From: Patescibacteria group bacterium
Lineage (GTDB): Bacteria > Patescibacteriota > Patescibacteriia > Patescibacteriales > UBA12465
Assembly (NCBI GenBank): GCA_028687275.1
Contig: JAQUAK010000001.1
Coordinates: 292,213-356,212, forward strand
Direction: 5' to 3'
DNA length: 64,000 nt
Numbering within the stretch: position 1 is the first letter of the stretch; every line of letters begins with the position of its first letter. A model generated the notes under the pieces. It did no database searches, was not told the origin of the DNA, and saw only the letters and a program-made list of their open reading frames with translations. This document shows, piece by piece, positions 60,818-61,436 of the stretch. The position numbers and the translations under genes were made by a program.

Positions 60818-60829
60818 TTTATTAACTCC

Positions 60830-61265
60830 TGTCGCCAGTATCTATTAGTTTATCTCTGTGGGTCGGTGCCTTGTTAGAAGATCAGTTTACTGTTTTCTTC
60901 CGATATGGATCGTAACCGAGATAAATTAATAAATCCTGGTGAATCCGACGGCTGTGGATTTATCTACTACCGCCGGCCAGCCTGGGTTGAAAAGCCAGTC
61001 TGATCAAGGTCGAATCCCGTAAGGGAAGACTTGCTCATTATAAATCTAGAATGTTTTTTCAGACCGATTATCCTTAATCTTAAAGATTAAGCTTCAATGT
61101 TTCTACATTAAGTTTGTATCCATTAAGATGACTCATTTCCCGTAGATTGATTAAGCTTTTCTCCAGCCTCGGCTAAACAAGCTTTATGGTTGGCAGAACT
61201 TAATTGATTTGTCTCTCCAGAAAGCCTGCTTCAACCGATGTGTTGGTGGAGCGGGATTCCGATCA
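60830..61265. ncRNA. GC-enriched structured noncoding region of unknown class: long leader or independent RNA
   Basis: No ORF. Hairpins at 60938-60964, 60996-61033 (GUAA tetraloop on plus), 61151-61186 and 61189-61238. tRNA-like strings on the minus strand. Confidence 0.3.
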
Positions 61266-61436
61266 ATCTATAAAATAATGATGTCGTTTAAATAAATACA
61301 CCTCTTATATATAGGAATAGAAAAAGATTTTTCAATAAGGATTTGGAAAACCGACATGAAAATTCAAATCTCATCATTTATTGATTTGTTCGCACTAATA
61401 TTTTGTGGACAATCATGAATGATTTAATTATTACTT

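Follow-up and report, generated by a model that had tools for sequence, protein, structure and literature searches.

The window analysed here is a 64,000-nucleotide stretch of Patescibacteria DNA (assembly GCA_028687275.1, contig JAQUAK010000001.1, positions 292,213–356,212), and our subject is a 619-base gap within it (60818–61436), a candidate leader RNA that reaches from the stop of an open reading frame (ORF) at 59993–60817 to the ATG at 61437 of a gene for a secreted surface protein. All genes concerned lie on the plus strand. The conserved neighbourhood opens with an extracytoplasmic function (ECF)-type sigma factor gene (58975–59562; Pfam Sigma70_r2/r4/ECF), followed by the gene upstream of the RNA (59993–60817), which encodes a 274-residue protein with a weak Pfam match to DUF5667, a possible anti-sigma partner. 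NCBI lists an identical protein as PHE20_01695 (Patescibacteria group bacterium), and the 255 homologues all come from Patescibacteria/Falkowbacteria; the order sigma, DUF5667-like and surface gene recurs in an exact-match contig.

The window holds the 5′ part of the surface gene (61437–64000, 854 codons), whose product has a signal peptide, is rich in Ser, Thr, Val, Ala, Gly and Asn and lacks Cys and His. Full-length relatives are 1,147–1,240 residues long, with a signal peptide, a Thr/Ala/Val/Ser/Gly/Asn-rich composition and almost no Cys or His, so the “giant” gene of the original prediction, made from this DNA alone, shrinks to an ORF of ~3.5 kb, and the idea of a giant gene in need of antitermination was dropped. 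The N-terminal 230 residues are 52–91% identical across related loci, with a conserved start MKKLRKF. Its size, composition and signal peptide suggest an S-layer-like major surface protein rather than a giant adhesin; the database annotation is “hypothetical” and nothing more. A large share of its database entries (P0121–P0240) are “partial” and sit at contig ends: assemblies break inside the gene, as they would if it contained internal repeats or were hypervariable between strains. The N-terminal ~220 residues of the protein also occur as a domain fused to other C-termini across Patescibacteria (e.g. Uhrbacteria). In relatives the ORF is followed by a canonical GC-rich terminator with a U tract. 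A hairpin region lies 20–70 nt after the stop codon in L072, L081, L095, L113, L176 and L183, and another clade has a different hairpin (UUAUCUAAGCAAUUAGAUAA) at the same place; the window ends before this point. A likeness of the 3′-untranslated hairpin to the P1 helix of domain D3 of the RNA (described below) is confined to one clade, and mimicry was rejected.

Conservation of the gap and its linkage to the surface gene

The gap is real and structured, as originally proposed: its plus strand has a minimum free energy (MFE) of −178 kcal/mol against −136.7 ± 6.2 in shuffles (z −6.6), and the minus strand reaches z −4.5. The division into a GC-enriched core (GC 0.35–0.49) and an AT-rich stretch of the last ~170 nt (0.25–0.31) also stands. 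All strings quoted earlier are present, namely GGTGAATCC-N9-GGATTTATC (60938–60964), the CCC-GTAA-GGG hairpin, AAGCTT boxes at 61153–61158 and 61179–61184, GGTTGGCAG (61188–61196), CTGCTTCAACC (61226–61236) and the minus-strand strings GGAATCCCGCTCCACCA (61260–61244) and TTACGGGATTCGACC (61022–61008); only the hairpin start given as 60996 was ~10 nt early, as it spans 61007–61033. The statement that neither strand carries an ORF needs qualifying. Two mechanical ORFs touch the gap, one of 32 aa (60905–61003, plus strand) and a TTG-initiated one of 40 aa (61403–61525) overlapping the gene start; we judged both noncoding and not conserved because homologous regions carry 1–2-nt indels.

Sixty-eight related loci were taken from species-representative genomes by alignment of the upstream DUF5667-like protein. 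An nhmmer search with the gap sequence gave matches in ~45 of the 68, directly downstream of the DUF5667-like gene, with E-values down to 1e-113, and E-values of 1e-80 were still obtained where the flanking protein shares only ~55% identity; the gap RNA is better conserved than the DUF5667-like protein beside it. A profile search recovered pieces of the gap in essentially every one of the 52 loci with the downstream surface gene; the N-terminal 230 residues of its product are 57–91% identical in these loci. Metagenomes were scanned for two invariant blocks of the D3 core, AGCTTTTCTCC-N76-106-GCGGGATYCYGA, which yielded 120 contigs, 116 of them true members and four GC-rich chance matches. The same element is thus present at the same position, between the DUF5667-like gene and the S-layer-like gene of ~1,200 aa, in 52 genome loci and 116 metagenome contigs. 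Many public metagenome-assembled genomes with this locus (L005, L008, L012 and L015 among others; also L011 and L049) are labelled “uncultured Gammaproteobacteria”, “Bacillota” or “Halanaerobium”, which are probably mis-binned or mislabelled records.

The surface-gene ATG lies 48–188 nt downstream in every true member with enough sequence. R1, a covariance model of the core, finds a single plus-strand copy per locus; in the window it has one convincing match (61137–61279; 126 bits, E 1.7e-36), the next best scoring 14 bits (E 0.23). With one copy per locus and constant proximity to the ATG, the element is therefore strictly cis-linked to the surface gene.

Modules, covariation and known RNA families

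Alignments of the related loci divide the element into four conserved modules, D1 to D4, with variable spacers between them, all on the plus strand. D1 (60832–60942) is a long irregular hairpin in which 60832–60856 pairs with 60918–60942 as a basal helix and apical pairs reach 60881/60896. The 24-pair basal helix and the apical pairs form a near-continuous duplex of at least 20 bp, of the kind expected for an RNase III-processed leader, and the 3′ arm GAGATAAATTAATAAATCC is nearly invariant. In some relatives (L016, L030, L072, L101, L186) D1 is separated from the DUF5667-like gene by a further small GC-rich hairpin, e.g. GCCCGCTCCGGCGGGC, which may be a terminator or insulator of the upstream operon. 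The last strand of D1 can also form an alternative helix, D2a (60932–60988; 60932–60938 with 60982–60988), which is mutually exclusive with the D1 base and encloses a clade-specific insert holding the GGTGAATCC...GGATTTATC hairpin. D2 (60993–61035) consists of helix P-a (60993–61000 with 61028–61035) and hairpin P-b (61015–61018 with 61023–61026, GUAA loop), the latter being the CCC-GUAA-GGG element; its asymmetric loop CAAGGUCGA (61005–61013) is universally conserved and AAGGTCGA is invariant in alignment A6. The following spacer V1 (61036–61136) contains lineage-specific hairpins, and only its 5′ end (CTCATTATAAA) is conserved (alignments A2 and A6).

The core domain D3 (61137–61279) is a rod. 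Its helix P1 joins 61142–61152 to 61261–61271 (strands UAGAUUGAU and AUCAAUCUA), P2a pairs GCUUU (61155–61159) with GGAGC (61248–61252), and P2b pairs CCAGC (61163–61167) with GUUGG (61242–61246); across relatives the invariant GCUUUUCUCC(A)GCC pairs with GGYUGG-Y-GRRGC. The junction GGGAUUCC (61253–61260) is invariant, as are the blocks TTAAGCTTTTCTCC and AGCGGGATTCCGA; invariant blocks of the element are 12–14 nt long. The AT-rich spacer V2 (61280–61372) measures ~100 nt in the clade of the window and ~30 nt in most relatives, and is nearly absent from the most distant subclade. D4 (61373–61422) is a conserved hairpin with the apex GUUCGCAC-loop-GUGGAC, which ends 14 nt before the AUG and is followed by an A/U-rich unpaired spacer, UUUAAUUAUUACUU (61423–61436), without a Shine-Dalgarno motif. 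The MFE of D4 is −16.9 kcal/mol; it is AT-rich, unlike the terminators of these genomes, which are GC-rich with a U tract, and was rejected as an attenuator or terminator. The last 170 nt, AT-rich as predicted, had also been called promoter-like; this is not borne out, as a conserved RNA hairpin lies there and the stretch is hence probably transcribed.

Pairing was counted on a model-fitted alignment for D3 and on alignments not fitted to a model for D1, D2, D2a and D4. In D3 (86 sequences), 95.3% of cells are paired, 11 pairs have changed on both sides, and doubly changed cells number 133 against 48 in shuffles; none of 500 shuffles did as well and slid controls reach 26–47%. For D1 and D2 together (76 loci, sequence-only MAFFT) the figures are 88.1% paired, 41 of 49 pairs changed on both sides, 0/500 shuffles and 38–49% slid, with the D1 basal helix alone at 93.7% and 22 of its 24 pairs changed on both sides. 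Individual D2 pairs follow suit (60993–61035, GC74/AT29/CG9; 60995–61033, CG92/TA21). D2a is 92.8% paired, has all seven pairs changed on both sides and scores 0.515 for covariation against 0.255 shuffled (0/500). On the D4 alignment (119 sequences) RNAalifold gave no structure; the hairpin was read off the consensus, and counting then showed it to be 79% paired against 67% shuffled (0/500; slid 39–46%), with one pair occurring in four Watson-Crick types (AU41/GC35/CG16/UA9). Over the tested modules slid controls range from 20 to 49% paired. An unbiased covariation analysis (G-test with average product correction) ranks helix pairs of D1, D2 and D3 at the top. G.U cells outnumber A.C cells by 348:96 in D1+D2, 48:11 in D2a and 384:42 in D3, and the functional molecule is therefore the plus-strand RNA. 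These comparisons show D1, D2, D3 and D4 to be conserved and, as judged from their covariation, base-paired as RNA; the covariation check proposed with the original prediction thus came out in favour of all four modules.

Rfam 15 (4,227 models including OLE, GOLLD, ROOL, raiA, EAR, riboswitches, RNase P and 6S) gave no match in the gap at the gathering threshold, nor did any family match the element in eight related loci, and a permissive scan of 60700–61500 on both strands (E ≤ 10) returned only noise, without transfer-messenger RNA (tmRNA; alpha, beta and cyano models) or transfer RNA (tRNA). Rfam models do work in this clade, since a standard RNase P class A RNA was detected elsewhere in the relative L090; a diverged RNase P was set aside on the same ground. 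ARAGORN reported no tRNA, tmRNA or tag peptide in the whole window. It found no tRNA because the tRNA gene at 10889–11210 is interrupted by a group I intron (Rfam 10918–11166; 79.9 bits, E 1e-18), the sole Rfam match in the window; the split tRNA (5′ exon ...TCCCAGGTAGCGCAGCGGTAGCGCAGTTGGCTGT..., 3′ exon ...CCAATTGGTCGTGGGTTCGAATCCCACCCTGGGAGCA) is possibly tRNA-Asn(GUU) with the intron in its anticodon loop. Near it, the primary sigma-70 gene (regions 1.1–4; 9385–10758) encodes an N-terminal extension of ~90 aa with a sub-threshold match to the histone H1-like HC2 family (PF07382; 34.6 bits, E 2.7e-8, curated cut-off 40).

The tRNA-like and tmRNA-like appearance of the two minus-strand strings dissolves once the plus-strand fold is considered. 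GGAATCCCGCTCCACCA, taken for a tRNA-Gly or tmRNA acceptor end, is the reverse complement of the 3′ strand of the covarying D3 P2 (GGYGRRGC) plus the junction. Its “CCA end” TCCACCA becomes TCCGCCA or CTCACCA in relatives; either purine, A or G, can stand opposite the invariant U's of GCUUU, hence the change of the “CCA” to GCCA or CACCA. GGGATTCGACC is likewise the reverse complement of one D2 hairpin arm plus the conserved loop, and the “GGAUUCGAC box”, read as the tmRNA 5′ box, is one arm of a locally covarying plus-strand hairpin. We rejected a tRNA, tmRNA or permuted tmRNA (ARAGORN and Rfam negative, strings not conserved as such) and a tmRNA tag frame with resume codon (no tag peptide; indels in homologues exclude a conserved short ORF). 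A tRNA fragment at an attachment site was rejected too, the flanks being the sigma, DUF5667-like and surface genes in all loci, with no direct-repeat partner and no integrase.

Alternative pairings, transcript ends and competing explanations

Two strands of the element have a choice of partners. Strand 60932–60938 pairs either with 60836–60843 at the D1 base or with 60982–60988 in D2a, and both helices are conserved. In D3, the strand CUCCAGCC (s1) can pair with the distal GGYUGG (s1:s4, topology II), which is the covariation-supported fold, or with the proximal GGCUGG (s1:s2, topology I); the median energy gap between the topologies is 1.7 kcal/mol, and the proximal complementarity of s1 beats shuffles in 90% of 118 sequences (mean z −2.9). 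Distant clades strongly favour topology II, whereas topology I is the MFE fold of the window's own sequence. Within D3 of the window, positions 61207–61215 read GTCTCTCCA where relatives have GTCAGTC: the internal strand that would otherwise be the partner of GGYUGGCAG has become a copy of the 5′ strand (UCUCCAG). The predicted MFE fold switches topology as a result, which may be a lineage-specific rebalancing of the two folds. On the evidence of the alignments, two conserved pairs of mutually exclusive helices suggest a processed or switching leader. Other long-range pairings did not hold. The D2 hairpin (GAAUCCCG) is complementary to the D3 junction (CGGGAUUC) in the window only, and it covaries locally (CCC/GGG, CCUU/AAGG, UCUUGC/GCAAGA) while the D3 block stays invariant; pairing of the D1 5′ strand with the D3 loop GCAACACGCGC is confined to a GCGCG-type subset, is absent from the clade of the window and has energies close to shuffled ones.

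Eleven whole contigs of 3.9–4.3 kb (L076, L077, L082, L094, L103, L111, L117, L119, L141, L159, L181), from different samples and organisms, each contain a complete surface ORF. They start ~3–25 nt 3′ of D1, inside the D2a loop, and end 1–62 nt past the stop codon, before or within the terminator hairpin; a twelfth (L097) begins further downstream. Genomic contigs of the same organisms continue past the positions of these ends without a break. Judging by the ends and by their unsorted, very high serial numbers, the ~4-kb contigs would seem to be metatranscriptome assemblies. If they are transcripts, we infer an abundant monocistronic mRNA of ~4 kb starting at ~60943–60950, with D2–D4 in a 5′ untranslated region (UTR) of ~490 nt; the start would thus lie upstream of 61265, and not downstream of a core that is in any case strongly conserved.

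Such a leader would be out of the ordinary for this organism. Among 45 genes of the window checked over 30 nt upstream, one has a Shine-Dalgarno-like motif at the appropriate distance, and many ORFs have a TATAAT-like box (e.g. TTGTTATAAT) only 7–12 nt before the ATG, a spacing which suggests that leaderless or very short-leader mRNAs are widespread here. For these two reasons a surface-gene start without Shine-Dalgarno motif is normal and a long leader exceptional; we therefore dropped the missing motif as a special feature.

We consider it rather likely that the gap is a new cis-acting family of structured leader RNAs on the mRNA of an S-layer-like surface protein in Falkowbacteria-like Patescibacteria, which stabilises that mRNA or regulates its output; judging from its conservation and position, the leader probably controls how much surface protein is made. 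Of the options offered originally, the long S-layer-type leader is thus the one we favour, though not as a generic stabilising hairpin, given four covarying domains, invariant loops and two alternative pairings. In the mechanism we propose, a longer precursor would be transcribed through D1, and the D1 rod of ~50 bp, a substrate of RNase III type, would be cut off by an endonuclease, a cleavage suggested by the contig ends. This would free strand 60932–60938 to re-pair with 60982–60988 as D2a at the new 5′ end, where the structure may shield the mature mRNA from 5′-end-dependent decay. The invariant loops of D2 (CAAGGUCGA) and D3 (UUAAGCUUUUCUCC / AGCGGGAUUCCGA) could then dock a trans factor or make tertiary contacts that set stability or translation, and D4 would insulate the A/U-rich start region, which has no Shine-Dalgarno motif, and keep it unpaired.

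Several points weigh against this reading. The transcript nature of the ~4-kb contigs is deduced from their ends and serial numbers and is undocumented. If the mature 5′ end lies 3′ of 60938, D2a cannot form in the mature mRNA. The shuffle controls ignore phylogenetic relatedness. As simple stabiliser leaders are smaller and less conserved in sequence, this one may do more than stabilise its mRNA. Finally, transcription may begin just after D1, in which case the 5′ end there would owe nothing to processing; a TAnnnT hexamer is conserved in the D1 3′ arm. Upstream of D1, -10-like elements show no enrichment, which leaves no evident promoter for a precursor.

This last point leads to the strongest alternative, which we regard as possible at about one chance in a few: D1 would be the 3′-terminal hairpin or insulator of the sigma/DUF5667 operon and its 3′ arm would hold the surface-gene promoter (-10 TAAATT, 60922–60927), with a start at ~60932 and an mRNA opening with D2a as stabiliser. 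The pattern T-A-n-n-n-T is kept across clades A and B (TAAATT, TATACT, TACACT, TAAACT), a conserved -10 box upstream of D1 was looked for and rejected (no positional TANNNT enrichment), and many relatives have a short U run after D1, which the clade of the window lacks. The contigs begin at least 15–19 nt downstream of the hexamer; this is compatible with first nucleotides lost in assembly, but ~60932 is only ~4 nt past the hexamer, where ~7 nt is usual, and the contigs begin even later. Neither a -35 nor a TGn element can be recognised, and the middle positions of the hexamer covary with the D1 5′ arm, as RNA pairing predicts.

Somewhat less probable, to our mind, is a riboswitch-like or factor-responsive switch. 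Here D2–D3 would respond to temperature, a protein, an ion or a small molecule by changing between two folds, and would thereby govern how the surface-protein mRNA is processed, degraded or translated. Both mutually exclusive choices, D1 base against D2a and s1:s4 against s1:s2, are conserved, with a median of 1.7 kcal/mol between the two D3 folds, and D3 resembles an aptamer in its covarying stems around invariant junction and loop nucleotides. The same pattern of covarying helices round invariant junctions, seen in D2 and D3, is also typical of protein-binding or tertiary-contact sites; the alternative helices are also explicable by precursor-to-mature remodelling or co-transcriptional folding, and the strong preference of distant clades for topology II speaks against a switch. 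Nor is there a conserved expression platform: D3 P1 lies 40–170 nt from the AUG across a variable spacer (between D3 and D4 it is anywhere from ~0 to 100 nt long), the leader has no attenuator-type GC-rich terminator, and the start region is occluded in neither state, as D4 excludes the AUG region. A bolder version, which we hold to be unlikely, would make D2–D3 with D1/D2a a new large signal-responsive device, either a riboswitch for an envelope or host signal or an RNA that cuts itself in the D2a loop, toggling to gate maturation or stabilisation of the S-layer mRNA.

The remaining explanations fare much worse. The second original option, an independent trans-acting large noncoding RNA gene that merely sits beside the surface gene, appears improbable: the length of ~430 nt, multi-domain fold and invariant loops do recall stand-alone structured RNAs, but the element is always on the same strand at a short fixed distance from the same ATG, occurs once per locus with no other convincing copy in the window, and has no promoter of its own and no terminator between D3 and the ORF; D4 extends the RNA to −14, and the transcript-like contigs are continuous from D2 into the ORF. 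Still harder to sustain is a role of the gap as regulatory DNA, be it promoter, operators or inverted repeats, to which the neighbouring ECF sigma system would bind. The gap is indeed intergenic and next to a sigma/anti-sigma-like pair, and D1 and D4 are inverted repeats, but compensatory changes keep pairing and not sequence, the helices are long-range and nested, and a 4- to 9-fold excess of G.U over A.C makes sense only for plus-strand RNA. The third original option, decayed tRNA/tmRNA attachment-site debris, for which only the two minus-strand strings spoke, can practically be dismissed, as ARAGORN finds 0 genes, Rfam is empty at E ≤ 10, integrase and repeat partner are missing, variants in relatives destroy the CCA and the box yet keep plus-strand pairing, and more than 160 loci show the region to be under strong purifying selection.

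Relation to known leaders and large RNAs

The closest precedent for the favoured leader is found in Lactobacillus, where S-layer mRNAs have half-lives of 14–15 min credited to long, structure-forming 5′ UTRs (PMC3666127). As in slpA of Lactobacillus acidophilus and L. crispatus, a long structured leader would precede a highly expressed, monocistronic gene for a secreted surface array with a strong terminator. The slpA leaders differ in being simple hairpins that are not conserved across genera, and there is no sequence relationship; the element described here has ~490–600 nt, four covarying domains, invariant blocks of 12–14 nt and alternative pairings. Known S-layer leaders are much shorter, on the order of 100–200 nt. 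More generally, 5′-terminal stem-loops such as that of the E. coli ompA 5′ UTR protect against 5′-end-dependent RNases, and long near-perfect duplexes are classical RNase III substrates (pnp, rnc, phage leaders) whose processing can remodel downstream pairing. The D1 duplex is alike, with the difference that its cleavage is deduced only from contig ends.

Likenesses to other RNA classes are partial. Riboswitches and two-state leaders share the covarying stems round invariant junctions and the mutually exclusive helices, but here no Rfam class matches, there is no terminator or start-sequestering platform, and a structural surface-protein gene is atypical for metabolite riboswitches. OLE, GOLLD, ROOL, HEARO and raiA are similarly lineage-restricted, multi-domain RNAs of several hundred nt with strong covariation and invariant loops; they stand alone or belong to mobile elements, and Rfam, which includes all of them, gave no match, whereas the present element is cis-linked to one gene start. 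Processive-antitermination leaders (EAR, put) are also structured and precede genes for cell-surface structures, but the single 3.5-kb ORF downstream of our element has no internal terminators and Rfam gives no EAR match. As a structured 5′ leader before a surface-layer gene, the element belongs to a familiar kind; its size, four domains, invariant blocks and alternative helices are unusually elaborate, and it is a new RNA family of the candidate phyla radiation (CPR). Literature searches on CPR structured RNAs and on S-layer leaders in Patescibacteria found no earlier description.

To our knowledge, Patescibacteria/CPR, with their tiny genomes and very little noncoding DNA, have almost no experimentally known RNA regulators. 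Despite this genome reduction, the lineage keeps a conserved folded RNA of ~500–600 nt before an envelope protein that is probably its most abundant and that forms the interface with hosts and phages. An RNA family with invariant loops and alternative pairings gives access to the way uncultivated bacteria regulate their genes. It may also involve a new kind of interaction between RNA and a protein or ligand, and it can serve as a marker for locating a surface-protein gene that is often broken in assemblies. If the element is only an mRNA stabiliser, the S-layer leader principle extends to CPR in an unusually elaborate form; if the signal-responsive device were true, genome-reduced CPR bacteria would have an RNA-based master control of their cell surface.

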